A stretch of DNA of 63,941 bases, filler included, from Perkinsus olseni (taxonomy: Eukaryota), in NCBI GenBank assembly GCA_013115125.1. It is 3 parts of 3 records of this genome, joined end to end, with 100 filler letters (N's around TTAATTAATTAA, not from the genome) between each part and the next. Parts side by side here need not be neighbours in the genome. Positions count along the whole stretch, not along the records: positions 1 to 23,753 come from JABANN010000515.1; 2 more parts are not named here. The stretch is one strand, 5' to 3'. The notes below the pieces were generated by a model. The model was not told the origin of the DNA. It made no database searches and worked only from the letters and a program-made list of their open reading frames with translations. This document shows, piece after piece, positions 1-63,941 of the stretch (its first letter is position 1; every line of letters starts with the position of its first letter). The position numbers and the translations under genes are program-made.

Positions 1-217
1 AACTGATTGACAAAGTTCCAGAATCATTTCATCATTCGACGTTATTTTATGGGCGAGCGAAACTGAGGCCTCCTTGCAAAATTCAGGAACCCCGATTTTC
101 TGAGAAAATCTCTTTTTTGCCCAGTGCATCGATGTCCTATCGAGCTTCAAACTAGTGTACTGATACTGACGGACTCTGACCAAATTCCGCGAGTTTTCGA
201 AACCCGGACCCCACTAC

Positions 218-6200: not shown

Positions 6201-6266
6201 ATCCCCCGTCGGGCTTACATGGCGAGCAGACATAACGTCGCGGCAGTTGCCGCATGACCTGGAGTC
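218..6266 (-). CDS. Beta-N-acetylhexosaminidase (glycoside hydrolase family 20), multi-exon; 5' start uncertain, 3' end probably runs off the left edge
   Basis: Hand-spliced GT-AG exons give GH20 motifs in order: LMIWPVPKSITV (about 6030); DEAYEFTC...GFFYGMLT (about 4700-4600); DYPSFPHRGMLIDTGRRYLPV...MAWVK (4437-4292); MNVLHWHISDDISFS (3611-3514); YTADEVKEVVEYA...VIPEMDVPAHT (3179-3072); MDPISERTSKMAVDVISEVVELF (about 2550-2465); catalytic VHLGGDEV (from 1844); VILWND; GGEACMWG; ESVDASVFMPRVWLRAAAIAERLW (350-218). Phases are compatible across the catalytic domain. Confidence 0.93.
4779..4851 (+). pseudogene. Degenerate tRNA (Ser/Leu-like) inside a GH20 intron, antisense to the host gene
   Basis: GACAGATTGGCTGAGTGGTTAAGGC...GGCGTAGGATCGAACCCAACGCCTGTCA: A-box-like D arm, partly paired acceptor stem (GACAG/CTGTC), damaged T arm, collapsed anticodon arm. 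Confidence 0.7.
5801..5888. repeat. Dispersed repeat fragment, second copy at about 46383-46470
   Basis: gaagacgcaga...gaagccttagagcagg...catgtattgct...ttaaggacagtttcga is present in both places, about 12 differences in 88 nt by eye, mostly transitions. Confidence 0.8.
6185..6215 (+). pseudogene. tRNA 3'-half relic (Lys-like T arm/B-box) overlapping a GH20 intron donor
   Basis: AAGGTCCAAGGTTCAAATCCCCCGTCGGGCT; on the minus strand the intron 6218-6086 begins GTAAGCCCGACGGGGGATTTGAACC. Confidence 0.6.
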
Positions 6267-6644
6267 CTGCGAGTGACCATTAGGAACCCCCAGGCAACTG
6301 AGCGGACCGCAGGAGATACTTTTCTCAGTCGACAAGCCACCTCAACGTGGCAATGATTCCACTTGAGGCACTCGCGTAACGCAAACAGAATCTCACGGCA
6401 TCACCAACGTTGTGAATGGGGGACAAGAAATCGCATCATGCGAAGTCATCCACAGCGTGACTCGGTAAGAGCTTGGGAACTTCTCCCGAGTCTGAAGACA
6501 TAAGTGGGCGCTCTAGGAGCAACATTCTTCGGCTTGATGAACAGAGCCTAGTCAACAGGCTGAACTGGCCCCCCAAAAAGAACGTCGGTGCTAGTTTAAC
6601 TAGGTCGTACTATCAGCGTTAGAGTTCGAACTCACACACACCAG

Positions 6645-6673
6645 AGGGCGCAGGTTCGATCCCGGCGTCGTTG
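6645..6673 (+). pseudogene. tRNA 3'-half relic (Ser-like T arm/B-box)
   Basis: GGGCGCAGGTTCGATCCCGGCGTCGTTG; exact GGTTCRANNCC, no intact D or anticodon arm upstream. Confidence 0.55.
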
Positions 6674-7176
6674 AGTTCACTCAGTAGATCGTCAAATGTC
6701 TTCTCCATGCGCGTTCAATAAACCCCACCGCTCGTGAATAATCTAAGGATCTCTCTATCAAGGAATCACTCCTAGTGCTTGACTAGGAAGATCGCATAAA
6801 TTGTGGTAATGGGAGGAATAGACGACTCCCGCATGAGTGCTCGCGCCTGATGACTCCTATCATCATGAAAAAATGGAAATTGATCAATTTAACCGCCCGG
6901 TCGTTGAAACTTTCTCGACGAACAAATCGCATCAAACATTCGGCCGATGTTTCATTCACGGTCCTCACGTAGTATAGCGCTCTCGAACACGGTGGGCCAA
7001 CGTGAGGCCCACCGTCGTTTCCGACGGTTGCGACCGTGGGTGACATACTTCCGGCTCTACCACGGCGGCTTTGGCGTAGTAGGTAGCGCGTAGGTCTCAT
7101 AATAACACGGCGTCTTTCACATTGAGAAAGTTGACGAGTTCCTCTCCAATATATCGGACATAGGAAGCGTCATGAA

Positions 7177-7258
7177 TGTCAGCTGTGGGATTCGAACCCA
7201 CGAGGATCTCTCCGCCAGAACTTGAGTCTGGCGCCTTAGACCGCTCGGCCAAACTGAC
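7177..7258 (-). tRNA. tRNA-Leu(CAA), intronless
   Basis: GTCAGTTTGGCCGAGCGGTCTAAGGCG CCAGA-CT-CAA-GT-TCTGG, long variable arm, GTGGGTTCGAATCCCAC AGCTGACA; full cloverleaf. Confidence 0.95.
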
Positions 7259-7857
7259 TCCGAGAAATCTGTATATATGACACTATCCAGCAGACCGTTT
7301 GTGTTGGGGGAGATGTACGACGGATGCAGAAGACCGGAAAGATGAGTAGAGCATTACAATTCACCCTCTCAGCTATCGAGAAGCGAAATCTTGTCGACCC
7401 AATATTCCGCAATAGACCGAAATGAATAACCGATGTCGGACGCCACTAGGGATCGTCTCGGATCCAAAAAGTAGAGCCCAGTAAGATCTCCCGCCATACA
7501 AAACCCACAGTCATTCCAGCCGAGGCATCGACAATGCCGCGTTGCGCCGGGTATCTGCAGTTGGAGCCCTCCGGAACAGTACACGCCCAAATTGGACGCC
7601 CCACAAATTTCCTTTTTCAATGACCTGAAACCACCGCCGACGAGGAGTCGTTACGTGTTGGTTGAGTGCAGCAACTCCACTCGACGAGCACCATGATACC
7701 ACCCGCACGCATACACAAGCGCGGCAGCAAGTTGAATGGGCGTGTGTGTACGCATGTACATGGCAAGAGTATCAGCATATTGCCCGACAGTCGATCGTTT
7801 TCGAAAGCATTATTAGGGGTGGGCGGCGAGATCGGGATGCTTCCAACGTTCATCACC

Positions 7858-7937
7858 GACAGTTTGGCCGAGTGGTCCAAGGCGCTGGCTTTAGGCGCCA
7901 GTCCGAAAGGGCGTGGGTTCGAACCTCACAGTTGTCA
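7858..7937 (+). tRNA. tRNA-Leu(TAG)
   Basis: GACAGTTTGGCCGAGTGGTCCAAGGCG CTGGC-TT-TAG-GC-GCCAG TCCGAAAGGGC GTGGGTTCGAACCTCAC AGTTGTCA; full cloverleaf with some G-U pairs. Confidence 0.9.
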
Positions 7938-8079
7938 TTTGCGTCGGTCGATGAATCCAATTTTTCTTCTAGGTTTGACCTAGGTAGTCATAATCTTGAT
8001 TATCAGCAGCCTCTCGGACAACTGGAAGACTCACGCAACCTCTCAAGGCTTTCACAACATCATCCACGTTCCAGTTGCA

Positions 8080-8647
8080 TCATGCGGACTCATTCGGCGC
8101 TTCTCTTGACGAGGGCTCGAGAGAGGAACCTGAGAAGGCCTCAACGATCGCACCATCAACCCCCGTACGAGGCAGGGAGTTCACCTGGCCTCTCCTTGGG
8201 TGCGACCGGTATGTCCATCGCCGCCGCTCTGTATGCATCCGCATACACTCTTCGCTGGAGGGCCAGCGCAAGAATCATCAGCAATAACGAAATGCCGATT
8301 CCGAGCGAGAAGGCCACTAACACTCTACCTGCCGAAGGGAAACACAATCGTTACCATAAACGGAACCTTCACGAGATGGTAGAAACTGAGCGGAGCGATG
8401 CGATTTTCCACCAGTTCTTCGCGAGATCGCTCGCTCCTGTCCATGAGAGGTTTCCTCTAAGAGAGCGACTGCATTGATCTCGTCGACGGCGACATCCAGG
8501 AACTACGAACAGAAACATCCAGCGCCATTTCGCGCGCGACTTAATTCAACTTACTCTGACGAAGCGCGTTCTCAAACTGGCAGCCTCGCAGGGCTGGAGA
8601 TCAAAAAAGAAGAGTGAGAGCAGAATTATCGGGCGGAAAATGGACAT
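8080..8647 (-). CDS. Small type-I membrane protein, 4 exons
   Basis: Spliced: MSIFRPIILLSLFFFDLQPCEAASLRTRFVR|FLDVAVDE...FLPSRE|GRVLVAFSLGIGISLLLMILALALQRR...|GSSLEPSSREAPNESA*. Signal peptide, one TM helix, canonical GT-AG introns. Confidence 0.75.
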
Positions 8648-8961
8648 GCAGAAAGGTAATGGCTAGATCAAGGCGCAGCATCTTAGGTTGAACCGCGGAA
8701 GATACAAAATAGGTCGTATCGGCGGGGTTCAACTCAACACATCCCTTCCCTAAACCGCCAACTTCATACATGTTACACATAAATTCAACTTCAGATCCTC
8801 AGACCTAAAACCAGCACGACCCTTGCGAAACAGCAAGCGGGTGTAAAGTCATGAAATTTTACGATGGGCATGACAAATCGCGCTCGCCATGTTGATCGAT
8901 TTGTCTACCTCGGCCCATCCTGCGTTGTATTCAGATTCACCAGCAAAAGCCTCCTACCTTG

Positions 8962-11879
8962 TCAACAGTCATCTACGAAGAGCGCACGTCTCGGCATGTC
9001 GGCCGACTCGGTCGCAACTCGATTGAATTGGCCCTGAGCAAAATTCGACAACCGTCGCCAACACTGCATGTATTGCTGCCATGTCGACGATACGATCAGC
9101 TGTTCACGCCCGCATAACATTTCGCGCGCCACGAAATTACTCACCTTCACAGAGCCGGCTCTTTTACGGGGCAACCATGGCGGGGACGAGACCTCCTTCG
9201 GTCTCTTTGGTGGCGTCGAGTATCCTTCATCTACAAAGCGAAAAAAGGCACTTGGACCAAGCACGAAGTTCTTCTCTGAAAAATAAAAAAAATTTTTTAC
9301 AACAATGATCTATTGTTGCATGCTTGGATGTATCAAGTCTATTGCGTTCTTCGGGTAAAATATAGGTAGGTAGCCCCAACGAGCGAGTAAACGACACCAA
9401 CAGCGATAATTCACTAAATCGTTCTGTTTCTCCACAATGAAGGTGAGAAATCACGCGGGAACATTGAACGCGTGATTCTGATAAAATCATCTCATACCAT
9501 CGACGGTAGTGGTTAATCAAACTCTTCAAAAAACCAAAGATTTCCGGAAAAAAACGCCAACTTGAAGTTACATTCTCTTTACCTATGGCAGTATTCTCAG
9601 ACCGACAAGGGAGTCTGGTCGTCACAAATCAGCTGGAAATAAATTCATCAGTCGAATTTATTTCCAGAAAATCGCAAATCACAGCCACCCTGAGCATACC
9701 TGTGATAACCCCCTGCTCTCGCGGAAGTGCTCGATGTGTTGAACATGATCGATTCTGAAACAGAAATGCCCAGGTAATTTCGAACTGAAGTGTGACAAGC
9801 CCAAGCGCCCCGTCGAACGATATAACCGAAAACGTCAACAGTCGAAACAAAAAAACTAGGGCGCTCGCTTTTTACATACACACGGTGAACTGCTCACAAC
9901 GATCGCTTCGAAAAGGGCTACTTCGTCAGTCGGCCCCTCTCCGATGCTTGCATTCCGTGCCGACCCACGACGGCTCCTCGGGCTCCTGGGCGTTGATGGT
10001 CGGAACTCGAGACCGCTGAAGACACCAGCAAATGCAGACACCAACTGCGCGGCTCTCCCGCGAGCTATGCCGCCGCTCGGGAACGCTCCCGACCTCCTTT
10101 CCAAACGTCTCATGTAAGGCAACTGTTCGAGTTTATCCCACCGAGGAAGTAATTTGAAAAAAATTCGAATGCTTTTCGTTGAGATCACGCTTTTGGAAGA
10201 AACGTGACCAAGATGGCGGTATCGCTGAGGAACCGCCAGACCCCTCCATCGCCCCACCGAATCCTCGCTAGACCTCGGAAGATCGAGAGCGAGTAGAAGC
10301 TAGGCCGACCAGAGCTAGCCCAGCAAGGTGAACGCTCTTCGAAGATTCTCACTCAGTTGTGGGCGGAGAATCATTGGTTAGACCGTGAAGGGTCGAAAGA
10401 GCATTTCACCGCTACGCCCTGCGAACTCTTTCACCCGAGGAAGGAAAATTCTTTTTTCGCCAACTGAGCATTTTTCTACAAAATGGGGAGAATAACGAAT
10501 GACGAATGAGTCAAACGAGTCGCCATTTTCCGAGTTTCTGTGAAATCGGCGTCACCCACCGAGCGCACCCTTTTCGAAGCTTCTTGGGAGGGGAGGCCAT
10601 GACGTGAAGGAAAAACCCGTCTAAAGGCAACCCAGTTGCACCGCTTATTATCTTCATTTCCATCACATCCGATCACTTCGATCCACCAGTTCCATCGTAG
10701 GTGTTATTTTTCTCATTGGCATTGCTACGTAGCCCCTCGTTAAACCATACCAAATTTTTCACAACTTCCCCGGAAATGCCTCATGCCGTGTTTCCATTTT
10801 CAATCAAAATTTAGAGCATTCCGATCCTGAGGAATAACACCTACTTGACCCGCTATACAACCACACGAGATGAATCGGAAGATTCCTCGGAAAGAGTAAC
10901 CAGAGAACTCAGAATTCGAGTTGCAATTCACGCTAGGTTGCCAGCACGCTCGCTTCAAATCCAACAAAGCCGGGGGCGGCGTTGGTTAGATTGTATTCAA
11001 TTTACAGTTTCAATTTATCGCTATATAATGATACAGGATATATCAACATTGAGGTCCCTGCGGAAAGAGACATCAGAGGTTTCAGAATTCGCGCTGCGAG
11101 CCCTTTCCCAACGCAACCAGCCAATCGGCATCAACACAGCTGCATGGCGACGCTTGTGACGATCAAAGGATCTCCCCATCATGAAATAAACGATTCTGGA
11201 TGAACCTATCCCATCAGGATACGACGAAAGAATTTCGTGACGCGTGACGAATTGGCGCCGGTTGAGCTTACCTCGATGACTAGTCCAGCTACTGGCTTTC
11301 AAACTAACCTTGACCGGCTGATGTATCAGGCTGCTGGGCCACTTCACGCCGAGCCTTATACTGAAACAACAATAGATCCCGGGTTCGAATCCCAGCGAAA
11401 ACACTTCTTCCAACCCTTGGCTGTCGGCGTGGAACCGCTGCTGGGACGCCCTCTTCAGCAGGCAACGACACCGAGTGGTCCACGAAGGGCGACGTCTGCA
11501 GCGTTGATGCTGATGCCGATGGACCTGATACCAAAAGATACCATTCCTGATACCATGACGTCGCGAAAAGATTTTTGATGGCGAAGCTGCGCCCGAATAC
11601 GCGGTGAGTGTCGTCGAACCTCCGCGGCAAAAGTAACGGTTTCAGTTACACAGAGAGCATCTACTACGAAGAAAACTCCCCCAAAGAAAAAAGGCGAAAG
11701 AATCGTGGAGTAGGTAAGTCCCGTGCATCAGATCTCTTTTTCGACTAACCTGAATCTCGTCTCGCAATAGAGACACTCGCCGCCGCAGCAGGAGGGTCAG
11801 CAGGGGCGGTAGAACTGGCTGACTCGGCTGGTGCCTCGATACGACTCTGACACCACACGTACCATCAATAGGGTGCATC
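8962..11879 (-). CDS. Hypothetical low-complexity protein, multi-exon
   Basis: Exons bounded by GT/AG: MHPID|ASSTAPADPP...|GPSASAST...PRRQPR|YKARREVAQQPD...; later DEGYSTPPKRPKEVSSPPWLPRKRAGSVK|CWRRLS...VDDC*. Middle exons are not fully resolved. Confidence 0.5.
11374..11403 (+). pseudogene. tRNA-Val-like 3'-half relic filling most of a 54-nt intron (11414-11361), antisense
   Basis: AGATCCCGGGTTCGAATCCCAGCGAAAACA; intron on minus strand: GTTGGAAGAAG-TGTTTTCGCTGGGATTCGAACCCGGGATCT-ATTGTTGTTTCAG. Confidence 0.65.
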
Positions 11880-12530
11880 AAGTAATCTCAGACTCTTTTC
11901 CAAAAATATGGTATCAATAAGTGATGACAAAATAAAAGTCCCTCCGTGAACATGCTGCGATATACGTGGACTGGTACATGATAAAAACCCTACCAAAACA
12001 ACTGCCTGATATGCGGGTCGGCCGAAGAGTCTCCAAATCCACTCGTATGAGAATCGACGAATTAATCAAACGTAGTTGCGCTCAAGCGCGCTAATATTGG
12101 TGTTAGTGAATGCCTTGATCGGTGTAGTTTAGAACAGATAGAATCTCGGGATTCAACCAAGATTATGCGAAGATCCCTGAGCGCGTCAATCGGAGTAGCG
12201 GCGGAATGGGAGTGTGAAACGTTGCTAGGTTAGTGATGGTCTTACTAGGGCCGTATCGTTTAAATATCAGAGCGAAACTCGGCTTCTTCGATGAATTATG
12301 AGTAGCGTGCCATGTATGTTAACAATTTGTGGAGTGGTGTATTGTGCGTACAAATTAGTCAGGCAGAATCGGGAAACTGCGATATTATAAGGCCTGAATC
12401 TTGAAACCGAAAAGTCTTACAATGCCACGCCCTTGAACCCAGACAAGCATATACTAGCACATAAGAGTCGACGGCGTTCAAGAGTCTCCCAAGGAACTCC
12501 TACGCAGTATTATTATCAAATTGCGAACAC

Positions 12531-13528
12531 CTATCGAAGAAGAGGCATCCTCCTGTCCGTGGTACTCACATTGGTGGTGGCGGTGGAGCTAGCAGGCTGT
12601 CTCAACGCCGTGGTCGCGTTCATAACTCCCCGGACTCTCTTACTCGAGGCAGAGGCTCCGTTCAAAGTTCGCTGGGCTCGAGCAGGACGACTAAGGAGGA
12701 GAAAAATTAATGACACCCACCCAACCTGATGAATACACGCCTTGAACGCCAAACCAATCCACCCGCGAGAAACCAAGCGAGGCTTATCTGGCACCCAGTT
12801 TTGTAAAGCAGGCCATTTAGCATAGTCAGCAGCGTGTGGGATTCCTCCGCAACTCCCCTAATTCCTGTGTGAAACTCTGAGCGAGTTGACAACGTCAAAC
12901 TCGGGGATCGATGGTGGCGAGTGTCCCGCCATAAAGTTTACAGTTGGACAGTTCACAGTACAAACTTCACAGTCCACCGTTGGCCCGGCTCGAGCAGCCT
13001 CCCAACGGTGTGCTGATTTCTCCATAGCTTTATGCGAAGGTCGATGTCCAAGGACCTTCGCATGTCTAGGCACAAGCTTGCTAAGAAACTTGGCAGAAAA
13101 TTCGGCAAAATATTTCAGAAAATTTCCCTTCGAGTTTTTACATTTATCTCCCCCACCAACTTACGCTTCGAAAAAGTTATACCAAACCGCAAGAGCAGCC
13201 GCCGAGACAACGAGTGCGCCGGAAAAGATCAGCAGAGGGACTCGATGGCCGCCAGGGGCCGCTGCCGGGGACGCGGTGGTCGCCGATGCTGCTGCTGTTG
13301 TCGCAGCTGCGGTGGATCTGAAACGAAAGGGGTGGTAAGCCGACACGAGATTTCGCCTGATTGATGATTTTCCTTAAAGATGCGCTGAGGGGATCCAAGG
13401 TCGACCCTGGCATTTCACGAAACACGTTCGCAATATCGCTTGACCGTTAGGAGTGGTCTTTCACTCACTCTGTTGAAGCTTCCGCAGTAGTCGCCGCGGG
13501 AGGCGTTGTGGAGACGGTAGGGGCAGCC

Positions 13529-13595
<67 letters not shown>

Positions 13596-14438
13596 CGGCG
13601 GCGGGCGCTGTTGTCTGTGGTGATGCTGTAGACACCGGAGAGGCGGCAGCAACTGAGGAAGACGTTCTTGGGAAGCTCTAGAGAATACCGACTAGAGAAT
13701 ACCGACTATACAGTACTCTCGTACTCTCAGTACTCTCGGGCGAACGAACCACCTTGGGTTACTCGGAGCCACACAAACGACGCGCTCACAGCGAACGAAC
13801 GTGGGCAACACTCAGCCGGTCTCGAGCTGAAATTCACGATTGTGAACGAGGAAAAAAACGAAATTTTTTACGAAGGTGCGGCGGTCGGCTTCCAGAGGAG
13901 ACCTGCTAGAGGGAAGGGGACTCACCAGTAGTTGGAACAGCGGCTGTGGTTTGAGCAGGAGCAGCCGGAGCCTCTGTGGTTTGAGCAGAAGCTGCTGTTG
14001 TCGATGTGGCATTGGGAGTGACAGTACTCGTCGTAGATGCACTAGCAGTAGTCGAAGAGGATGCCGTAGTGGAGGGCGGAGGGGACGGCGCTGCACCTAA
14101 CGGGTGGTCAGTGAAGTAATTCTAGAACCCGCTTTTACGCGAGTTTCAGAATAAGGGGGTGCTAAACTAACCTAGTTTGAAACGCAGACTCGATTTTAAG
14201 ATCGCATTTCACATGTAAAAATCAGGGGTGTAGTTCGGACTGAGGTTCAGTCACTGAACTAGAGGTAAATGATCACCAAATGCAGCGGAGCGAAGCACTC
14301 ACTCAAAAGAGCATGAGTCATCATGAGGTTGGCGTTATTGGACCGTTCGATGGTGATGGCGGCAGCGGTGGTGATGTGGAAGACGATGATGAACAGCAGT
14401 TTAGGGGGCCCGAGAAGGCGACGAAGTCGTATTAACAT
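12531..14438 (-). CDS. Mucin-like (Thr/Ala/Ser/Pro-rich) type-I membrane protein
   Basis: MLIRLRRLLGPPKLLFIIVFHITTAAA signal-like start; exons at about 14096-13927 and 13652-13469 are S/T/A/P-rich with poly-Thr; TM LLIFSGALVVSAAALAVWY (about 13235-13180); tail ends ...RRMPLLR* at 12531. Confidence 0.75.
13529..13594. repeat. (GTA)22 microsatellite encoding a poly-Thr tract on the minus strand
   Basis: Perfect trinucleotide run inside the mucin exon, read as ACT codons. Confidence 0.95.
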
Positions 14439-14547
14439 TAGGTGAGTTGGAAAGAATGTTGGCTGAAACACCGAGGGGTCCTTGGTTCGATACTACCGCA
14501 GCACATTCTTCATACAAACGACCCGGGTTCGATTCCCACAGCCCCCA
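14439..14547 (+). pseudogene. Two tandem tRNA relics (Phe/Val-like 14439-14505; T-arm only 14516-14547) in a 153-bp intergenic gap
   Basis: TAGGTGAGTTGGAAAGAATGTTGGCTGAAACACCGAGGGGTCCTTGGTTCGATACTACCGCAGCACA and GACCCGGGTTCGATTCCCACAGCCCCCA. Confidence 0.6.
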
Positions 14548-14591
14548 AAACACAACAACAATCTGCAAAGAACACCAAGAGCATGATTATC

Positions 14592-16050
14592 TCATTTATT
14601 CGAGTCCGCCAGGCTGATGTCAGCCAGCTTGCCCTTCCCGCTGTTCCGGCGACGCTCTTTACGACGCGCCTGAGGACGAACGAGCATCCCGCGTACACCA
14701 CACAAACCACAAAGCTGCGATGAGAATAGAATGTTATCAATATTCAGAATGGTCGTAGATCACAACGTCCGAGGAGAGGAGACAGGGGTTACTAATCAGT
14801 ACGAGAATGAACTTACTCTGCGACTCTGTCCAGCTGCCTCTTTCGGCTGTCCTTCCTCAATATCAACTTCAACATCTTCCGGGCCTCCCTCGATCTCGAT
14901 AACTTCGGGCTCTGGCTCATCCTTCTCTTCAGCACTGAATCAACCATAACATGTCTTTCGCACAGCGAAGATTCCGTCGGAGTGACTGTTCGCAGCTTCC
15001 TCATTCTCCCCTCCAAAAATTTTCGTATGAGGAGCTCAGCTTCCATAGAGGAAGCGTGGCTAAGAGCCACTCCTGCAGCCTCTATCTCTAATATTTATAT
15101 ACTTTCGTTCGAAATAGTTCGAATAGTTCGAGCGCGGCATCATTGAATTCTAACGATAAAAGCCTCGTGCAAAATCCCGATCTCACTTCATAACGGTCGG
15201 CGTTTCACCAACCAGGGGAGTCTCATCAACACTCGCCACCTCTCCTTCCGGTTTGTCCAGGATAACCGTTTTCGTCAAAAATCCGATCGCCAGAAGTATC
15301 AGCAAGGAGCCCGTGGTGACGTAGATGATGTTGATAGCTGAAGCAACGAAATATTAATAACAATAATCGAGTCCTGAGGGCGCTTTTTTGGAGTGATAGT
15401 AATCAGTCAACCCTCGTCATCCCAACTGAGGCCGAAGAGGAATGCAGCGAAGAGTAAATGGCGACTACATTCACATTTACCATTTAAGTAAATGGCGTAT
15501 AAAACGTTATGCTGGTGACACGAAACAGGCTATCTAGATTGCGCATACTGTAGCTCTAGTCAGCAGGCAAATCGGCAGTTCCAATCAGCCCTAGTTTCGA
15601 AGAATATATTCTGGAAGCGCACTCTGTACGACCAATCAGAAGGCACTCCACCGATGCCTCGTGCTACGAGCGGAACCAATGCAGCTTACTCTTGCTGGGC
15701 CCTCGTTTGGCGTCATGACTCTGATGACCTCCTAAAGGAAGAGTTTATGGAGCATCCTCGCGACTTCCTACTTTCGCCGACTGCAAAGAAGCTGCCTTCA
15801 GCGGCCTCTTGGCTGAAAGCCGTTGTAGGAGTTCGGGAGCCCAGCTCAAACATCTGAGAAAAGGCCCCCAAAAGGCTGCCCACCTGTCGAACCCAGGTGG
15901 GTTCGACCCCCGCCGGGACTATCATTGTCCCATTTTTACCTTCTGGACCAACTGGCCCGTCCCTAGCATCGCATCATCTACCTCCGTTTTCACTCCGCCA
16001 ACAATATATAATATTAGACACACTGCCGCTGTTGCCCGCCGGGACAGCAT
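14592..16050 (-). CDS. Type-I membrane protein with acidic cytoplasmic tail, multi-exon
   Basis: MLSRRATAAVCLILYIVGGVKTE|MFELGSRT...; TM INIIYVTTGSLLILLAIGFL (about 15338-15278); EEKDEPEPEVIEIEGG...|ARRKERRR...DSNK*. Confidence 0.6.
15895..15921 (+). pseudogene. tRNA-Ile-like T-arm/3' relic in intron 1 of the 14592-16050 gene, antisense
   Basis: AGGTGGGTTCGACCCCCGCCGGGACTA, preceded by an inverted partial copy (CCCACCTGTCGAACC). Confidence 0.55.
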
Positions 16051-16334
16051 CTCCGAAATATAGTAATTGCTAACATCCACACCGAGTCCCCAAGATGCGC
16101 TCACGCAGCCGAAAGATTCTCCATGGACTCCCTTTATGAAAACACGACACACAAAAATCAGAGGAAACCATCCATCAGTATCTTGCGTGAGGCATGGAGG
16201 TCGGAGATAATAGAATCCTTGATACGCATGATGCGTGCAATAATACCGTCACAAAAACTGCATAGGACTACCACGTGAATTAAGCAATCAGTAATTTACA
16301 ATAAACCATAATACTTTCTCATCGCTCCGCCACC

Positions 16335-19300
16335 TCACGCGCGAGGCCCTCTAGAAGACGAGCTAGACGACGAGGACGAAGACGAGGTGTCAGAATCGTT
16401 CAATATACCGCTTGTATACCTGCCAATCACCGAGCATGTGAGATTCCTCCACTCAACGCTGAGAATCGAAGATGGCCTAACCCGCTTGCCTCGCGGAATT
16501 CCTGATAGCCAAAAGCATGCCTCAGTTCGAAACTCAGACAAACCGTCGAGATTTGCTGAATATTCTCGACGAATATGAGAAGAACCGTTCGTAGAGAATC
16601 CTATCCCGCTCCATGCGCTCTGTACTCACCTTGCCCTCAGCTCCCCATCAACCGACGACAGCGCTCCAACAGCGACATAAGATACCATATATTTTAAATT
16701 TTGTGGCGCGCGACGGAGAATTTGCCTCAATTCTCTCAAAATGTACTGCGCCAAGGCCAGAGGTAAATTGGTTGCATTTACCTGATAATGACTCCCATGC
16801 TTGCTAGTAGTACCAAATACCGGCCTACTCGACCGTTTCCCGCCCTCGGTACGAAAGCGAAGGGCTGGCCCTTGGGCGGGCGAAGCTGGCGCTTCTGCTC
16901 GGACGTGAAGTTATTCATGAACATCGAATGGAGCTCTTGGACGACCGCAACTGCAAGAACGCCGCATTGTAAGGCAATGACAAAGCAGCGAGCTGACAAC
17001 CCCGTGAATACAGAAGACGGACTAACCGGACCAATATCCCGAGGCTGTTCATTCTATGGAGCAGATACGCCGATTGACGATGATAATTAAGATAGATATT
17101 GATAAAAAATATTTTATAATATAATAATAACTAACGACCATACCGACCCGACAGACGCTGCCTGTTCTATTCTCGGTGGTACTTGGATCGGTTCGGACCC
17201 GGTTCCAGCGGCAGCGTTTTACACAACTCCACATCGCAGTGGTGCATCCACCCACCCAATTGCTCTTTGCTCATCTTCAACAGCGTCCTCTCATCCACCA
17301 CAACTGATTGCCGAGCCATTTCTTGAAATACCTAAGATGCGCTCGGGTATCTTCATTCACCGCACTCGCAAGAATCCACGATCAGCGACAGCAAATCGCT
17401 CACCTCCAGGCTTAAGTTTCGAATATCTTCCCGCGTTAGCCTCCTCACAGGAATCCATGCCAAATCCTTTTTCTTTGAAGGAGTCATCAGCTTCTTGCTT
17501 ATAAGGAACTGTACGAACAAGTAGTACATCCTAACCTCCCCCGCATCTTGCCATAATCAACCTTAGATACCACATCCGTATAAGCACAAGCCACTTTCAG
17601 ACACCTCTAGCTACACCACGACTCACATTGATGAATTTGTCCGCCCTCTCCAGCACGTCATTCGGGATGACTTTACGACTGACCGGATGCAGTAGAGGCC
17701 GGGGCTGCCGCAAGAACTGCTGCAGACTGCCCGAATCAAAACCTAGGGCGGAAGAATCTAGCATTTATCAGAATCGCTCCCTCCCGACCTCGAACGTATC
17801 TTCCATCCTCGAGGTATGAAAAAAGATATTTCACTTCATTAGAAGGCACTCGTCTTCCGGTAGAATCTTCAGTCCAAATTTGTTGCTGTATAAAACAGAG
17901 GAGCGAGAGTATCTTTAGGTTACCATGGTGCTACATGATTACCAAAGATATTAAATCGATAGGATCGTGAACTAAACATGGATTGCCAAAAGCTGGACCA
18001 CTGAGCTCCCGAAGTCTCCTCTCAAATCGATCATCTAATCGATTTGTATGGAAACCAGCCGATAAGCCACACCCAGCTTCACTTTCTTCAGTCCCCCTAG
18101 TCCGTTCCAACCGACGACGCGCCGCCTGGGAAGAGAAACAAAATCCTCGCTAGGAATCGAACCCGGCTCGTTCGTGCTAAAATCGCGTCTGCCAACCATC
18201 TCGAGTACTCGGTTCCTCCTCTTCCTTATGGCCCGGTTTCGAATCCCAACAGTTGCCGCAGTCTGCTGCTGCTGCTGCTGTTCGTTGTGTTGGCTAGGGC
18301 CTGCCCAAGGATTCCACTGCACGCCCAGGACGAATATTGAAGACAAAATTTGTAAGCAGCAAGATAGTTTACAAAATATCCCCGACGGAGCTCATTTGAT
18401 GACACCGTGCTAGAACTTCTCGCCTAGAAGCATCGGACGTAGCGCTGAAGTTGAATACTCCGACGGATGATTATGATTATGAGGTATCAACTGCCACTAC
18501 TCGAACGACAAAGGCCATTGCGCGCCAATACGTGGACGCGGAAGTAAATATTTTTCGTCAGGAGGGAAATACGAAAATTTGAGAGGATTTAAAATCTGCA
18601 GAGCAGGTGGCATCGTCAACGAAGTTCAGGTGCAGGGCGAACCGAGATCGAATGATGTGTCGCTTCTTGAGGTCTACCATTCACGCCTATGATCAGGAAT
18701 ACGAGTGCGGCGACGACCTTCCTACACGTCACTACTATAGAAAATCATTGAGGGCGTTCAAGAGATCGCTGACCCTTCTGGGTTCCATGAGCGCTCTCAC
18801 GATTCAATTAAACGCATAGAAGACGACCCCGAGAGCGCTCGGGAATTGAACACACGGACTTCTCTTCCGCATAACAGATGACAAGATGAAGAAGACTTTC
18901 CCAGCACCCATCAATCGTCGTCCTACAAGTGCGGATGCGCGCAAACAACTACTGGAAGCAGCAGAGGAGTACACGCAAAATATATCAGTGAGGTGGCTCA
19001 GAGACTATGCGCTTTCGATCGCTCTCTAGGCTAGCGTTCCGATGAGACTGTTGATGCCCAGACTCAATGCCTAGCCGACACGTGACTTGGTTGCAGCGAA
19101 GCTAAGGACTTCGGCCAACACGATGCCGAGTTCGGCGAATAAAGGGAGCGCGCCAGTATTCCGCAAGGACTCACCTCCCGCCGATCTCGAATAGGAAGCC
19201 TCCGTTGAACTGAGAGGATGATCGGGTCGAAGGCCGCGAGAGTCGAGCGTCTCCTACCGCAGCCCAGACTGCCCAGTTCCTTGGGATGGACTTCCCCTCT

Positions 19301-19900
19301 TGAAGCGGTGCATACCTGATAAAATGGTGCCGCGAAAGAAAACTAACAGCACGACGCGACGCACGGCTTTGGAATGTCATGCAACCTAGTTCGGAGAAAA
19401 AGGCACGCTGAATATGGGATGAATCGCTGGCAACAATAATGCAGCAGACGCCAGACCGAAATACGGCGAAATACACCGACCGCCAGAAATACGATATACC
19501 GAAATACGCCAGACCGAAATACCGGGCGGCGTTGCGTTGTCAACTAGTCGGTCTGTGACATTGAACACAGTAATAGCTTTGCGACTTATCGGATGATAAA
19601 GCGTTGTACTGTGGCCGATAATATCACAGTAGTTGCGGAAGTCTGTAAATCTGACGAGTCGGCCAGGGCATGGCCACCTAAGTTCCACGTTCCTCACACA
19701 AAACCAGATTCGCGAAAACAGCAAAGGAAGCCAGTCTCGGAGCGGACCACTCCTACCTCTGTTGGAGTTATGATGAGCAGTGGCTGCAGGAGGAGAGGAA
19801 CGCATGAGGAATATGCAGTAGTGTGAATTCTCTGCGGCGACCTGCGGCGAGGAAGATCGCAGTAATCGATCATACGGGCGAGCGCTATGTTTGCGCGCTG
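16335..19900 (-). CDS. Multi-exon hypothetical protein whose C-terminal region (about 240 aa) resembles conserved giant-virus (Nucleocytoviricota) hypothetical proteins; 5' end uncertain
   Basis: Eight phase-compatible GT-AG exons (18034-17943, 17885-17789, 17742-17627, 17508-17404, 17331-17256, 16950-16829, 16745-16630, 16419-16335) give one open frame. The family resemblance is from recalled motif pattern only. Confidence 0.7.
18143..18257. pseudogene. Two oppositely oriented tRNA T-arm relics within a probable intron
   Basis: Minus 18170-18143 CGAGCCGGGTTCGATTCCTAGCGAGGAT; plus 18230-18257 GGCCCGGTTTCGAATCCCAACAGTTGCC (Leu-like end). Confidence 0.5.
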
Positions 19901-20563
19901 ATTTTCACGGTTACAGCGCACTTAAAGATCTCGGCGCCAGCAGGTTAGGTTGGAGCAAGCATGTCCTTCTATTCATGTGCTGCTTGGGGGCGCCGTTAGG
20001 CTGGCTGAGGCCATTGATAAACGTTTTACTTGTGATTCGTATAATCTACTTGACGTGGATAATTCCGTTCCCACTCTAGAAAAGTTCTTGACGCCGTTGG
20101 GTTATGGTTGAACGCCTCACTAGTGTCTCGTATAGCCTTGCAAATCAGGCGGGTACTATCTAGTTCCCAATCGGGAAACATCCTCAGATGCCAAGTATCA
20201 CACTCATGCGTCTGCGCGAGACTTTCTCATGCCGCGCGACGCCGTTTGGATTTTGTATCAGAAGGAGTTGTTTGCTTATACCGGTTCGCACGTTCCGTCT
20301 TGCCGGCCGGGCGGTACACGAGACATAACTCAGAATGGCATCAATTTCTACACGTGAAGATGGTGCTGAATTGATTGTGAGTTTCAGAATTGGTTCGTCG
20401 AGAACGAATTAAGGAGAGTGGGTGGGAAATTTTGGTGGTAAACTCATCAGGAGTATCTTTTTTATATATGAAGTCCCCTCATGCAGTTCGGCTTGCCAGC
20501 CCTTCTTCGGCTGTCGTATTAGCGAGGACCAGTCGTAGGGACAGGGGGCCCGGGTCGAAGGAG

Positions 20564-26207: not shown

Positions 26208-27410
26208 TTAACGAGGGTCAGCCAGCGTCTTCCGATCAGGTCTGGCCCAGCCTTGTACCCACTCGTCCACCTGACTCTCCCTGCCAGTAGCGTAGAGAGC
26301 TACTGCTCTCGCGCACTCATAAAATAGAGGAAGACCGTTGCCGTTGAAGCCAGCACAGACGAAAATATTTCTTCGACCGGGGACAGGGCCAACCAGTGGA
26401 AGACCATCGGGTGTGAAACAGAGGAGCTCAGACCATGATGAGCACGCTTCGACCTTGGATACGTCTCCTTGGGAGTGATCTTGAAGGTATCTTTCTAACC
26501 GTTTTGTGCCAGCTTCGAGCTCGGATGCGCCTTCGCCACCTATTAGGATTCGCTCTAGCACGGGCCGAGAAATGTAGACCGTGTCATTAACAGCAGCGAG
26601 CGTGCATTCGGCGAGTCGCGTATCTTCTTTTCTGCAGGGCACCGCAATGACATGACTCAACCTCTGAGTGAAGCAATGCGCCAGTTCCGGTAGCAGCACG
26701 CCAATAAAGGCGTTCGTGCACAGTACCACACCTTCACCAACTTTCAGACATCGGCCTCCCGCCAGGACCAGGGACAAGGAATCTTTTGAAATATATTCGA
26801 CCAGAGTGTTGAAACTGAACCTCACCTTGTACGTATCAGCTGCTTTCTTCGCAATCATGTAAGCCAACCGAACCGGGTTGGCCGTAAAAGTGTTAGGTTG
26901 CCGTATTCCTCCGTATCCATCACGCTTCGACCTAAGATTCGCCGCCAGCCAGCCCTCATCGCCGTCGAGGATCTCCACACCCCCCAACGCCGGAGTGTCC
27001 CCAAGCGCCCTCTGCTCGTCACGCTCTTCACTCGAACAGGCAAGTTCGATGCTTCCCCGTATCTTCGTAGCTTCAACCTCGGATACCGCCTTCGCTCCGC
27101 TCATTTCAAACCGTAATTTCTTCATCCCTCCCTCATCTTCATGAGCATGACTACTAGGCCAGACATGCCCACCATTACGTCCAGAAGCACGCCAGGCCAG
27201 GCGAGGGCCAGACTCAAGGACCAACACGCTGTGACCGGCGCGCCCCAGATGAAGAGCCGTCGCAACTCCCGTAAGACCAGCACCGACCACGACGTACTCA
27301 TAGGACCCTCTCAAAGGGTCCTCGGCAACGGGTAAGTCAACCTCAGGGGTGGTGGTCTGCCAATAGGACAACCCACCGGGCAGGTCACGTACAGACGCGG
27401 ACGTCATCAT
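26208..27410 (-). CDS. FAD-dependent oxidoreductase (DAO/glycine oxidase superfamily), intronless, 400 aa
   Basis: VVVGAGLTGVATALHL...VLVLE Rossmann motif, ASGRNGG, FTPDGLPLVG, CAGFNGNG. Confidence 0.92.
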   Translation of the reverse strand: MMTSASVRDLPGGLSYWQTTTPEVDLPVAEDPLRGSYEYVVVGAGLTGVATALHLGRAGHSVLVLESGPRLAWRASGRNGGHVWPSSHAHEDEGGMKKLRFEMSGAKAVSEVEATKIRGSIELACSSEERDEQRALGDTPALGGVEILDGDEGWLAANLRSKRDGYGGIRQPNTFTANPVRLAYMIAKKAADTYKVRFSFNTLVEYISKDSLSLVLAGGRCLKVGEGVVLCTNAFIGVLLPELAHCFTQRLSHVIAVPCRKEDTRLAECTLAAVNDTVYISRPVLERILIGGEGASELEAGTKRLERYLQDHSQGDVSKVEACSSWSELLCFTPDGLPLVGPVPGRRNIFVCAGFNGNGLPLFYECARAVALYATGRESQVDEWVQGWARPDRKTLADPR

Positions 27411-27511
27411 AATCGATTAGAATGGCGCGCGCGATTGACGGATGCTGCGACGACGGCTCACCAGCGTTTCCGACTAGCTTCACTACTTCATTTGATCATC
27501 ATCCAGTGATC

Positions 27512-28111
27512 ATGTTTCTGGTAAACTGGTTCTGGGATACACTAAACTGGCTCGGTCTCTCTCACAAGAACGCCAAAATCTTGTTCTTGGGTCTCGATAA
27601 TGCGGGCAAGACGACGCTGTTGCACATGCTGAAAGATGACAAGGTGGCCACTCACGTCCCGACGCTGCACCCTTGTTCTGAAGAGCTTCTTATTGGGAAA
27701 ATAAGATTCCGCACCTTTGATTTGGGTGGTCATGAAACTGCTAGGAGAATTTGGAAGGACTACTACGCTACTGTGGATGGTATCATTTTTTTGGTCGACG
27801 CCGCGGACCGCACAAGATTCCCTGAAGCGGCTGAGGAGTTGAGGCACCTGATGGAGAGTCCCGAGCTTCAGAACGTCCCCATCGTCGTCCTTGGAAACAA
27901 GATCGACGTGCGGACAGCTGCCAGCGAGGAGGAGCTGAGACAGTCGCTCGGGTTGTATTCTCACACCACCTTCGGTAAGGACGTTAACAAGCAGATGGTG
28001 AAGAACGCTCAGGAAGCTGGCATTAGGCCGGTGGAGGTGTTTATGTGCTCTGTGGTGAAGCGAATGGGCTACGCTGAAGGCTTCAGATGGTTATCAGAGT
28101 TCTTAGAGTGA
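27512..28111 (+). CDS. SAR1: Small GTPase Sar1 (COPII), intronless, 199 aa
   Basis: [16 protein letters not shown] amphipathic helix, [44 protein letters not shown]. Confidence 0.98.
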
Positions 28112-48436: not shown

Positions 48437-48597
48437 CCGCTTGCACTGCTAGCAGTTGCTCATGTCACATGAATCATGTGGCAGTGCAGGCTCAAAGTTT
48501 AGCTTCGCTCGCCTTGCTCTCTTTTGTTGTCACGGTTGATGAGCAACCTATGAATCGTCGATTGTTTACTGTTCACAATCTGGGAGATACGACCGCC

Positions 48598-48679
48598 TGA
48601 GTGCTGTGGGGTTCGAACCCACGCGGACCGTGTCCAGTGGATCTTAAGTCCACCCCCTTAACCACTCGGGCAAACACTC
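48598..48679 (-). tRNA. tRNA-Leu(TAA)
   Basis: GAGTGTTTGCCCGAGTGGTTAAGGGG GTGGA-CT-TAA-GA-TCCAC TGGACACGGTCCGC GTGGGTTCGAACCCCAC AGCACTCA. Confidence 0.95.
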
Positions 48680-48759
48680 ACGGTGTGATGTGACGGACTG
48701 CGAACGCGTCCGCCCGGCGGATGGGGTGAGCCCGCAAGGCTCGCTCTCGACTTTTGCTA

Positions 48760-62754: not shown

Positions 62755-63551
62755 TTCAGGAGAAAATCGTGAATGAGATCAATGGTTCCGGCTTCAACGT
62801 TTTCATTTCGCTTCGATGTGCACTCCAAATTGGGAAGGTATACTGTGCATGACGAGTTTGTCAGACATGACGATACTATCAAGACACAATCTCAAAATGA
62901 GGCTACTCGAAAATGAGATTCCTATCGATACGCCATCGATTCCATCAAATCATCAATCGCTAAGCCAGAACTTCTAATTCCGAAGAATAAGAAAAGTGGG
63001 AGCTTGGAACGCTATAAGCAGCCTCCCCACAATTAGCCAGTAGGAGTGCGTTGTCGAACGGTTCCTTGACCCGCGAGAGTTGCAAATACTACCATCCGGT
63101 GCTGAGTGCCGAGCTGGCCTGAAGCAATCGCACTCCTCGTAGCGAGCTTCCCAAAGAAAGGACCGAGTCCTCGGTCATGTAGGATTAAATTACAACTTAT
63201 TTTCCGAAGGTTGCCGTAGTTACTACCGAACTTTTTCGATTAGAGCGAGTCTCACTCAGTGAGATAATTCCTTCGAAACTCAGAGATCGAAGACCTAGGT
63301 GGTCGACCTAGGTCTGGCCTAGCGTATCCATTGTCTCACAGCAAGATCGGTGTTAGTGGCACCGTGTAACGACTCATTACTAACGAGCACTGACTCGGCG
63401 CCAGTAGTGGCAGCCGACTCAGAGTACGCATGCGATACCGCGCTGGGGAAATCTAAGAACTTTCGAGAGTGCAAGATATCTGCGCACGATAAAAACGGCG
63501 GGCGAGCGAGATTTTCTGAGGAATCATAGAAGAGCCAACTCGAATTTTGTG

Positions 63552-63941
63552 ATGGGTGCTTCAAATCTAGACGCATCTAGCTCACGCCCGTCCGGCGTGG
63601 GACACGATAGACCTGGCTGCATTGCGCCTGGGTGCAAATCCCAGGCGCGGCAGCCCGCAAAATTTTGTATTATTCACGGGGGTGGTCGCCGATGTGTCTG
63701 GCCTCTTGGGTGCGGTAAATCGGCGGTTGGTAAGGCGTCTTATTGTAAGGCTCACGGTGGTGGGCGTCGATGTCTCTGGCCTGGCTGCCTCAAGGCTGCC
63801 AGGCCAGGGGACCCTCAAATGTGCATCAAACATGGTGGTGGCAAGAGGTGCAAGTTGGAGGGGTGTACTGTGCGGTTCAGCGCAGTGTACGGAGACCTGT
63901 TAACTATTACGGTTGATCTGTCTCTTGTATGATAGTATTTA
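63552..63941 (+). CDS. WRKY19-like zinc-finger repeat protein (C-x4/5-C...CxxHGGG), probably continuing past the right edge
   Basis: Three repeats: FCIIHGGGRRC, YCKAHGGGRRC, MCIKHGGGKRC, each preceded by CxxxGC. Confidence 0.85.

Follow-up and report, generated by a model that had tools for sequence, protein, structure and literature searches.

Within the window, that is, the whole stretch of Perkinsus olseni DNA analysed (63,941 nucleotides, filler included), the minus strand carries an intron-rich gene (19313..16335) whose product is a member of a family of mimivirus-like (Imitervirales) giant-virus proteins. The explanation that most probably accounts for the data overall is that the locus is a transcribed gene residing in the nuclear genome of P. 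olseni, that its family is homologous to giant-virus proteins, and that the two are connected by an old exchange. The gene would provide a concrete instance in which giant viruses and alveolates of the Perkinsus/Syndiniales side shared a gene long ago; in the literature searched, no paper linked Perkinsus or Amoebophrya with Nucleocytoviricota.

Gene structure and transcript support

Transcript evidence was taken from contigs of three public runs (three studies), which are presumed to be RNA and are recorded as RNA in no case. Spliced joints in these contigs read CT..AC on the plus strand, corresponding to GT..AG on the minus strand. The full coding sequence comprises at least 11 exons and 10 introns, all on the minus strand, and encodes 372 amino acids; the N-terminal region is basic and of low complexity, and a conserved unit of ~240 residues comes after it. 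Its first coding part (19258..19313), covered by a contig spanning 19258-19783, starts at the ATG at 19313-19311, where the longest ORF of the spliced chain begins; upstream, this exon continues to at least 19783 as a 5' leader with three upstream ATGs. A joint at 19210-19257 connects it to a small 35-nt coding exon (19175..19209; AG/GT bounds checked), and a further joint (18301-19174) leads to another coding exon (18209..18300), which encodes a Gln run and a basic cluster and is open solely in the frame that carries on into exon 1. This basic cluster looks like a candidate nuclear localisation signal.

Across joint 18126-18208 follows exon 1 (17943..18125), which encodes a basic linker as well as the beginning of the conserved domain (GPAFGN...DPIDLISL); its sequence is conserved in a P. 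chesapeaki ortholog (P0006) and a P. olseni paralog (P0005). Joint 17886-17942, with 183 letters on its upstream side, leads to exon 2 (17789..17885; AG/GT bounds, conserved in relatives), which encodes strands of a putative RING/U-box-like module (LFSY...RG) and is matched by relatives P0007, P0010 and P0027 in tblastn. Beyond intron 2 (17743..17788; 46 nt, weak donor GTCGGG), across which relatives are continuous, lies exon 3 (17627..17742) with the module end, its HP motif (HPVSRKVIP) and the next helix. Joint 17509-17626, present in all three runs, connects exon 3 to exon 4 (17404..17508), where a linker leads into the helical domain, and joint 17332-17403 (two runs) continues to exon 5 (17256..17331), the helix with the VFQ motif. 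The helical domain extends through exon 6 (16829..16950; EL...NF...Q+), reached across joint 16951-17255, and exon 7 (16630..16781), reached across joint 16782-16828, which contains the hydrophobic helix Y.VGAL..V and is matched by viral relative P0014 in tblastn. After joint 16420-16629, the conserved sequence ends in exon 8 (16335..16419) with RARY..G, followed by a Ser-rich tail and the stop codon TGA at 16335-16337; relatives stop at the same point of the alignment.

An earlier note had read a phase-compatible chain of eight exons in 16335..18034, and the peptides it quoted are found in minus-strand frames. The segments 18032-17943, 17885-17789, 17742-17627, 17508-17404, 17331-17256, 16950-16829, 16781-16630 and 16419-16335 indeed form one open frame, 843 nt long and closed by this TGA, and all eight are bounded by AG...GT. 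Six of the seven introns within this chain, all except intron 2, were seen as exact spliced joints, and the three upstream joints in the same contigs add three exons. The coordinates need extending at the 5' end: exon 1 begins at 18125, 93 nt further upstream, and three more exons precede it. The chain as listed had also missed parts of exon 4 and the exon 6/7 junction, which reads CGA/GTAGGC...CAG/GTAAAT around a 47-nt intron. The gene was said to be invisible in the ORF track, and this is so because no stop-to-stop ORF within it reaches 120 aa. Exons 1 and 2 alone match relatives in tblastn (E 9e-8 to P0007 and 5e-5 to the virus-like P0027), indicating that the exon pattern is not due to chance. 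The ORF of exon 3 is 100% identical to P. olseni proteins.

Giant-virus relatives and the conserved unit

The ordered motifs had been assigned in that note to an uncharacterised family common in Imitervirales, and this assignment was borne out by significant matches to nucleocytoplasmic large DNA viruses (NCLDV). A profile built from virus-like sequences only (alignment A2, 15 sequences) matched the spliced protein with 120.7 bits in hmmsearch, pairing profile positions 85-294 of 300 with residues 112-347 of 372. We collected 74 database relatives, 24 of which carry the virus-associated Pfam domain 2C_adapt. Eight loci came from giant-virus contigs or bins in IMG/VR (four labelled GVMAG, one on a 719,641-bp contig), and Capsid_NCLDV was matched in two of the three records searched, both of them giant-virus bins. 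The neighbours of the viral members are dense and intronless, with XRN, XPG, ubiquitin and TTL domains. A BFVD fold search, for which the query was a model of the paralog P0005 (50% identity) and not the window's own protein, recovered Tupanvirus, Faunusvirus, CroV, a Megaviridae sample and one unnamed entry (E 2e-11 to 4e-8, probability 1.00), and the nearest clusters in the ESM Atlas were Nucleocytoviricota (score 0.94). The wider claim that the family occurs in other Nucleocytoviricota rests on one weak fold match, to Pithovirus (E 0.018).

The closest comparison is with the 2-cysteine adaptor proteins of Imitervirales, such as CroV E3T4L7, Tupanvirus soda lake A0A6N1NW45 and Faunusvirus A0A3G4ZXE0, which have the ~240-residue unit in common with the Perkinsus protein and agree with it in motif order and predicted fold. 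Identity to the compared viral members is only 22-26%, and the Perkinsus gene differs in having 10 introns. The viral unit is usually preceded by a 2-cysteine adaptor; in contrast, the Perkinsus protein lacks 2C_adapt and has the basic low-complexity N-terminus instead. 2C_adapt (PF08793) was found in 48 of the 70 members of alignment A3, all virus-like, and in 6 of 28 phmmer matches; Pfam searches of these two sets gave no 2C_adapt match in Perkinsus, Amoebophrya or other eukaryote-like sequences.

The conserved unit has no Pfam model. Pfam searches gave no match with the eight exon peptides, and with the four GenBank models of the locus only WH_RGF3 (E 0.13). The domain was modelled at pLDDT >90 as a small beta module, forming the N-terminal half of the unit, and an all-helical C-terminal domain, which is larger and holds the most conserved stretch. 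A conserved, confidently folding domain family absent from Pfam is now defined, abundant in marine giant-virus metagenomes and with a U-box-like module as working hypothesis. Across 70 aligned sequences, the nearly invariant residues of the N-terminal module are D, S, L, R, H, P and P, among them the H and P of the HP motif. The same alignment contains no conserved set of Cys/His ligands in this module, which excludes a classical RING and fits, without demonstrating, a U-box.

Fold comparison of the N-terminal module pointed weakly in the same direction. RING/U-box structures made up 10 of the first 11 rows of a Foldseek search of the PDB (E 0.14-0.9), the top rows in VIA were PHF7 (Z 4.4), the AO7 RING (4.1) and HOIL-1 (4.0), all weak, and the named leads in the ESM Atlas include the NleG U-box effector family (0.82). 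Like U-box and RING domains (CHIP U-box, AO7 RING, TRIM RINGs, the bacterial U-boxes of NleG and LubX), the modelled module combines a beta-hairpin with a helix, and both fold searches place it beside these domains at low scores (Z at most 4.4, E at least 0.14); like the U-box, it is devoid of zinc ligands. It differs from them in a further pair of strands that separates its first loop from its helix, and in having no significant sequence or profile similarity to them. Pfam gave no match to the U-box (PF04564) or any RING family at E<=10 in the 70 members, the exon peptides or the GenBank models, a sequence profile search of the PDB gave none at E<=10, and Foldseek of the PDB returned nothing at E<=1e-3 with either model. 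Comparison of alignment A5 with one canonical viral U-box by hhalign gave a probability of 0.2%; in this non-significant alignment, the U-box loop falls on the HP.S/T...IP segment of the family. Together, these data weakly suggest a zinc-less RING/U-box-like module joined to a helical domain.

For the C-terminal domain, VIA returned residues 1011-1183 of ASFV M1249L (Z 7.9, rmsd 3.8 over 122 residues) and colicin A (6.2), and Foldseek gave weak rows for Bak, Bcl-xL and colicins (E 0.1-1.5). M1249L, pore-forming colicins and Bcl-2-type folds share with it an all-helical bundle around a buried hydrophobic helix; however, identity is 6-10%, no functional motif is held in common, and the scores lie in the tool's range for unrelated helical models. 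We set aside the weak rows for M1249L, diphtheria-toxin translocation domains, colicins and Bcl-2 proteins as generic helical-bundle resemblance.

Tentatively, and with confidence somewhat short of even, we propose a model in which the unit's N-terminal half, a zinc-less RING/U-box-like module, would serve as docking site for a ubiquitin-conjugating enzyme, and target binding or oligomerisation would fall to the C-terminal helical domain. Targeting would be provided by the 2-cysteine adaptor in the viral proteins, whereas in the protist protein basic clusters may direct it to the nucleus. Possible as well, if slightly more doubtful, is a unit unrelated to ubiquitin, acting as a structural or nucleic-acid/chromatin-binding protein in which the helical domain does the work and the beta module is a scaffold. 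The lack of any sequence method tying the unit to U-box or RING families would agree with such a role, as would the helical nature of its larger and most conserved part and the basic clusters upstream of the domain in eukaryotic members. The best VIA match of the helical part is moreover to an M1249L region found in RNA-polymerase complexes, but its Z of 7.9 is within the range that the tool gives to unrelated helical models, and the dominance of RING/U-box folds in two independent searches of the N-terminal module speaks against this role.

Host setting and origin of the family

The gene is old in the host lineage, as judged from its many introns, its paralog at 50% identity (blastp, P0005), its P. 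chesapeaki ortholog at 79% (P0006) and its ordinary host neighbours, the flanking genes encoding DAO, Arf and Peptidase_C13 proteins. Pfam matched four of the 76 window ORFs of at least 110 aa (DAO, Arf, Peptidase_C13 and Zf_WRKY19 only), and no NCLDV hallmark gene was among these 76. The GC content of 0.48 is like that of the rest of the window (range 0.44-0.53). A recently integrated giant-virus element was rejected given the 10 introns, the absence of NCLDV hallmarks from these Pfam matches and the unremarkable GC content.

To the extent that eukaryotic members are named, they are few. An exhaustive phmmer search over 1.84 billion representatives, with GenBank model P0004 (which lacks the N-terminal module) as query, gave 29 matches at E<=1e-3, and among the 20 that were looked up the named organisms were P. 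olseni, P. chesapeaki and Amoebophrya only. The broad, vertically inherited eukaryotic family that the earlier note had named as a counter-explanation was thus not what these matches showed. A eukaryote-only profile search (A4) gave seven matches but did not recover P0005, as word-sharing candidates crowded the list, and is therefore uninformative on breadth in eukaryotes.

In a tree of 20 eukaryote-like and 27 virus-like rows, the two groups were split by a branch with 100/100 support, the Perkinsus protein and the viral members lying on opposite sides. Thirteen unnamed rows were labelled eukaryote-like by appearance and absence of 2C_adapt, and the two sides differ strongly in composition. 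The tree is unrooted; midpoint rooting did not nest the eukaryotic rows inside the viral rows. A single split without a root gives no direction of transfer, so that of the earlier proposal, an old virus-host exchange is supported whereas domestication of a viral gene is not. We infer one ancient exchange, the partners being a virus of Imitervirales type and an organism early in the line of perkinsids and dinoflagellates. Transfer from virus to host is slightly favoured and the opposite direction rather unlikely, with the remainder undecidable.

Under that opposite direction, the family would have originated among early myzozoans, and a single capture would have brought it into an ancestor of Imitervirales, which fused it to the 2-cysteine adaptor and spread the fusion through the order, while the Perkinsus gene descended vertically. 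Such a history, which we regard as unlikely though worth weighing, is consistent with eukaryote-like rows that all fall on one side of the 100/100 branch, with Perkinsus and Amoebophrya in separate, duplicated lineages as vertical descent predicts, and with the many introns, the paralog and the ordinary host neighbours. Uptake of host ubiquitin-system genes by giant viruses is also known (PMC11915834). Against it, the named eukaryotic members fall in two parasite lineages only, whereas those on the viral side come from distant Imitervirales whose hosts differ greatly (Tupanvirus, CroV, Faunusvirus and many metagenomic bins), a pattern that would require the capture to be very early or the family to have passed extensively between viruses.

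Returning to the virus-to-host direction, its fullest form combines origin and function: a mimivirus-like virus would have introduced a zinc-less RING-type ubiquitin-ligase adaptor into the common ancestor of perkinsids and dinoflagellates, where the viral targeting domain would have been lost and a nuclear-targeting sequence and introns gained, making it a nuclear component of the ubiquitin system in parasitic myzozoans today. As a whole, this combination is decidedly improbable. If true, it would be a second viral contribution to the lineage in the manner of the dinoflagellate/viral nucleoprotein (DVNP), and older than the split of Perkinsus and dinoflagellates. DVNP is a small basic DNA-binding protein and shows a like pattern, a family that large DNA viruses have in common with alveolates on the dinoflagellate side. 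The parallel is an analogy only, as the two families have no relation in sequence or fold, and the present family also occurs in Perkinsus, which is not known to have DVNP. We know of no giant virus of Perkinsus or Amoebophrya parasites.

Intron 2 and the GenBank models

Splicing of the eight-exon chain was thus seen at every intron except intron 2 (17743-17788), for which the contigs of the three runs, which cannot show absence, contained no spliced joint. One contig covers 17627 to 17885 without a break and so keeps intron 2 while the neighbouring intron 1 is spliced. Retention brings in a stop codon, and constant retention of intron 2 would split the protein within its N-terminal module. 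A decaying or split P. olseni gene, yielding a truncated N-terminal peptide or a C-terminal fragment from an ATG inside intron 2, as GenBank models use, would explain this contig, the weakest donor among the seven (GTCGGG) and the start of three of the four GenBank models inside or just after intron 2. We consider it very unlikely, since the eight exons preserve an intact frame and every motif of the family, another short intron of the gene (47 nt) is spliced, and annotation runs without a gap across this very point in both the P. chesapeaki ortholog and the paralog. Run X1 also covers other introns and therefore holds unspliced material, and contigs drop rarer variants. Judging by homology, with both relatives continuous across the junction, intron 2 must be removed in making the conserved protein.

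Two other features at the locus were dismissed. A joint 16383>18263 (347 letters between, depth 278) connects two short low-complexity codon runs and reflects another abundant transcript. A tRNA-like stretch in intron 18126-18208, weighed as a possible repeat or structured RNA, is single-copy within the window, has a fold z-score of +1.26 and received neither an ARAGORN nor an Rfam call.

The four GenBank models found at the locus (P0001-P0004) all lack the N-terminal half and are all fused to the next gene, extending to ~14595; P0001 and P0002 place their start codon at 17764, inside intron 2. The downstream gene is a separate, neighbouring membrane-protein gene on the minus strand, with its first coding exon at 15940..16050 (ATG 16050), a joint at 15854-15939 and others further downstream, and a hydrophobic, signal-peptide-like N-terminus. 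No joint linking exon 8 to this gene was seen in the contigs of the three runs, which cannot show absence. All four models are wrong, and because they are truncated and fused, the domain has been hidden from routine annotation and from screens for virus-host transfer.

Exon chain, transcripts and public models of the gene

Inspection of the sequence alone had suggested an eight-exon gene that is invisible in an ORF list, and this was borne out: a six-frame look at the gene region gave no ORF of at least 120 aa in any frame, and the peptides quoted in the earlier note were located in translated frames on the minus strand. When exon ends were placed at AG/GT dinucleotides with the frame maintained, eight minus-strand exons (18032-17943, 17885-17789, 17742-17627, 17508-17404, 17331-17256, 16950-16829, 16781-16630 and 16419-16335) joined into a single 843-nt frame, open until a TGA at 16335-16337. 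The introns measure, in order, 57, 46, 118, 72, 305, 47 and 210 nt. At the exon 6/7 junction (CGA/GTAGGC ... CAG/GTAAAT), a 47-nt intron keeps the frame open, and database relatives have the same junction.

To this chain we compared contigs of three public sequencing runs from three studies, presumed to be RNA, over window positions 14000-20000, where joints with CT..AC ends on the plus strand correspond to GT..AG on the minus strand. Minus-strand joints coincided to the base with six of the seven introns: 16420-16629, 16782-16828, 16951-17255 and 17886-17942, as well as 17332-17403 in contigs of two runs and 17509-17626 in contigs of all three. No joint for the 46-nt intron 2 (17743-17788) was present among the contigs of the three runs, and one contig of run X1 was continuous over 17627-17885 before splicing intron 1, indicating that intron 2 is retained there. 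As X1 had depth in 30 of 30 bins, introns included, this run contains unspliced material; since contigs also lose rarer variants, we do not count the retention as a refutation of the chain.

The same contigs showed three further joints upstream (18126-18208, 18301-19174 and 19210-19257), the first of which moves the start of exon 1 to 18125. They define minus-strand exons at 18300-18209 and 19209-19175 and an upstream-most exon that ends at 19258 and extends to at least 19783. An ORF search of the extended spliced chain gave a longest frame of 372 codons from the ATG at 19313. Three ATGs precede it in the contig-supported leader, and one of them, at ∼19380, opens a 54-codon frame (window 19219-19380, minus strand) that spans splice junctions one and two, overlaps the start codon at 19313 and terminates in exon 18300-18209. 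This frame may be a regulatory upstream ORF, provided that the contig gives the true length of the leader.

Further contigs and sequence features touch the locus. A 931-nt X1 contig (window 18273-19203, depth 17) leaves most of the 874-nt intron unspliced and may derive from pre-mRNA, from DNA in the run or from a distinct transcript within the intron. A high-depth contig (278 in X1; also in run X3) was rejected as a transcript of the gene: it touches only 16352-16383 and 18263-18282, which are codon-repeat runs (a Ser/Asp-rich tail and a Gln run) separated in the contig by 347 foreign letters, and represents another abundant transcript with similar low-complexity runs. The 83-nt intron 18126-18208 (minus) holds a stretch resembling the T-arm and acceptor end of a tRNA (GGGTTCGATTCC...), and a similar GGTTCGA..CC stretch occurs in an intron of the downstream gene (15854-15939, minus). 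Neither ARAGORN nor Rfam called a tRNA or known RNA at the two sites; the stretch in 18126-18208 is single-copy within the window and shows no unusual stability.

The exon 3 ORF is 100% identical to P. olseni hypothetical proteins, and the four GenBank models of the locus (P0001-P0004; window 14595-19314, minus strand) are mutually discordant. Three start at, or just past, an ATG inside intron 2, and one joins an upstream exon in another frame straight to exon 3. All four continue into exons as far as ∼14595 whose product starts with a hydrophobic N-terminus and has a membrane span and an acidic tail. Family relatives stop a few residues past the last conserved motif, the end point of exon 8 here, and the downstream exons begin at an ATG of their own (16050) that leads into a signal-peptide-like stretch. 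We read the four models as two-gene fusions missing the N-terminal half of the conserved unit; the downstream gene is a signal-peptide/transmembrane protein starting at ATG 16050. The gene structure is a correction to the public P. olseni models.

Relatives in protists and giant viruses

An exhaustive phmmer search with P0004 against 1.84 billion cluster representatives returned 29 proteins at E ≤ 1e-3. Among the 20 looked up by exact sequence, the named organisms were P. olseni (paralog P0005), P. chesapeaki (ortholog P0006) and several Amoebophrya strains; the remainder were metagenome or transcriptome contigs. In both P0006 and P0005, the first two of the eight exons are present as uninterrupted sequence, and the spliced window protein shares 79% of 160 aligned residues with P0006 and 50% of 253 with P0005. 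Of the 28 matches scanned, six have an N-terminal 2C_adapt (PF08793) and no further Pfam family. A profile search with alignment A1 of family members gave 74 proteins, 24 with precomputed PF08793 and some on contigs of 60-109 kb; in alignment A3, 2C_adapt matches 48 of the 70 members, with no U-box or RING family match among the 70. Two paralogs of Amoebophrya sp. A25, P0018 (1181 aa) and P0026 (1208 aa), carry the domain at their C-terminal end and lie on the same 2.7-Mb contig with gene numbers six apart, which suggests local duplication.

The likeness to giant-virus proteins had been proposed in the earlier note. A virus-only profile of 15 virus-like sequences matched the spliced window protein with 120.7 bits, spanning the whole profile except its 2C_adapt part and taking in all eight exons, which establishes the proposed resemblance as real homology. 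P0005 was modelled with A3 as its alignment (pLDDT >90 across residues ∼140-392), and the model matched BFVD entries of Tupanvirus soda lake, Faunusvirus, Cafeteria roenbergensis virus (a protein named '2-cysteine adaptor domain-containing'), a Megaviridae environmental sample and one further entry (E 2e-11 to 4e-8, probability 1.00), followed by a Pithovirus entry at E 0.018. The ESM Atlas clusters nearest to the family relative P0007 were Nucleocytoviricota (0.94). Scanning IMG/VR with a virus-like alignment gave eight loci, four of them on GVMAG records and one on a 719,641-bp contig; the neighbouring ORFs are intronless and densely packed and include XRN, XPG, ubiquitin, tubulin-tyrosine-ligase and similar domains. 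In a capsid search covering three records, Capsid_NCLDV had six matches in each of two giant-virus bins (1.32 Mb and 0.68 Mb) and none in a 60-kb fragment. The gene is a well-supported new case of a gene family common to giant viruses and a protist lineage.

Residence in the host and direction of exchange

The gene has ten introns and a GC content of 0.48, inside the window range, and no second copy within the window. Of the 76 window ORFs that reach 110 aa, Pfam recognised four, none of them an NCLDV hallmark: an FAD oxidoreductase, an Arf GTPase, a C13 peptidase fragment and a WRKY19-type zinc finger. Taken with the 50% paralog, an ortholog in P. chesapeaki and two paralog lineages in Amoebophrya, the introns, GC, neighbours and single copy in the window mark an old resident family, not a recent integration. 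Elsewhere in the window, the FAD-dependent oxidoreductase ORF (minus, 402 aa, apparently intronless) stands head to head with the adjoining Arf-family GTPase ORF (plus) at 26211-28108, and the zinc finger ORF (63408-63929, plus; Pfam E 2e-13) lies at the window edge. Three tRNA-Leu genes (7177-7258, 7858-7937 and 48597-48680) have anticodons CAA, TAG and TAA; two of them are 600 bp apart on opposite strands.

A 47-row tree was computed from the window protein, six named eukaryotic, 13 other eukaryote-like (our own assignment) and 27 virus-like sequences; fragments, near-duplicates and the bulk of the 74 viral matches were omitted. In both careful and quick searches, all eukaryote-like rows fell on one side of a 100/100 branch. 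The two Perkinsus rows paired at 100/99 and then joined three eukaryote-like rows at 96/84; Amoebophrya appeared in two clades, and 19 of the 47 rows deviate in composition. On these sequences, the unrooted tree appears to show one exchange, not many, and is silent on direction. We lean towards virus-to-host transfer because the family is broadly distributed across Imitervirales and narrowly among named eukaryotes; the same distribution makes transfer from host to virus rather unlikely. Overall, the observation behind the earlier note is confirmed and extended, and its giant-virus reading is supported in all but the direction of transfer.

Fold and possible function of the conserved unit

No description of the family was found in the text of open-access papers. 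Among the matches listed, no '2-cysteine adaptor' paper concerns the conserved unit and no Perkinsus/Amoebophrya paper contains the term Nucleocytoviricota; in the accessible text of PMC9651163, P. olseni occurs only within a Mononegavirales tree. The unit has no Pfam family, and its profile matched none of the PDB sequences. The result brings an uncharacterised yet confidently folding domain: in the models, a helical domain follows a small beta module.

For a P. chesapeaki fragment model (191 residues, pLDDT 87), ten of the first 11 Foldseek PDB rows were RING or U-box domains (AO7, TRIM21, TRIM2, TRIM25, CHIP), with E of only 0.14-0.9. An independent all-against-all alignment placed PHF7 with UBE2D2 (Z 4.4), the AO7 RING (4.1) and HOIL-1 (4.0, 3.8) at the top and RINGs of HRD1, Nse1, Deltex, RNF146 and gp78 lower down. 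There is no Cys/His ligand set among the nearly invariant residues. A feature search limited to named clusters listed NleG U-box effectors at 0.82, a lead only. Speaking against this link, hhalign gave a probability of 0.2% for the family profile and one canonical U-box from a family-carrying virus bin, although the short piece aligned is the HP.S...IP loop that the topology predicts. The helical domain best matched ASFV M1249L residues 1011-1183 at Z 7.9, within the tool's range for unrelated helical models, and colicin pore domains ranked next (Z about 6). From these models we tentatively propose, with rather less than even confidence, a zinc-less RING/U-box-like module that would dock an E2, joined to a helical domain that would bind a target or oligomerise.

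Each of the family-carrying giant-virus bins has three or four genes for E2 ubiquitin-conjugating enzymes. In eukaryotic members, including the upstream exons here, Lys/Arg clusters precede the domain (22 K+R in 103 residues) and may serve in nuclear targeting. Canonical U-box genes are described in giant viruses (PMC11915834). In one family-carrying bin, a long protein has a canonical U-box at its N-terminus. Virus loci L009, L011 and L013 lie in bin G003, and L010 and L012 in bin G002.
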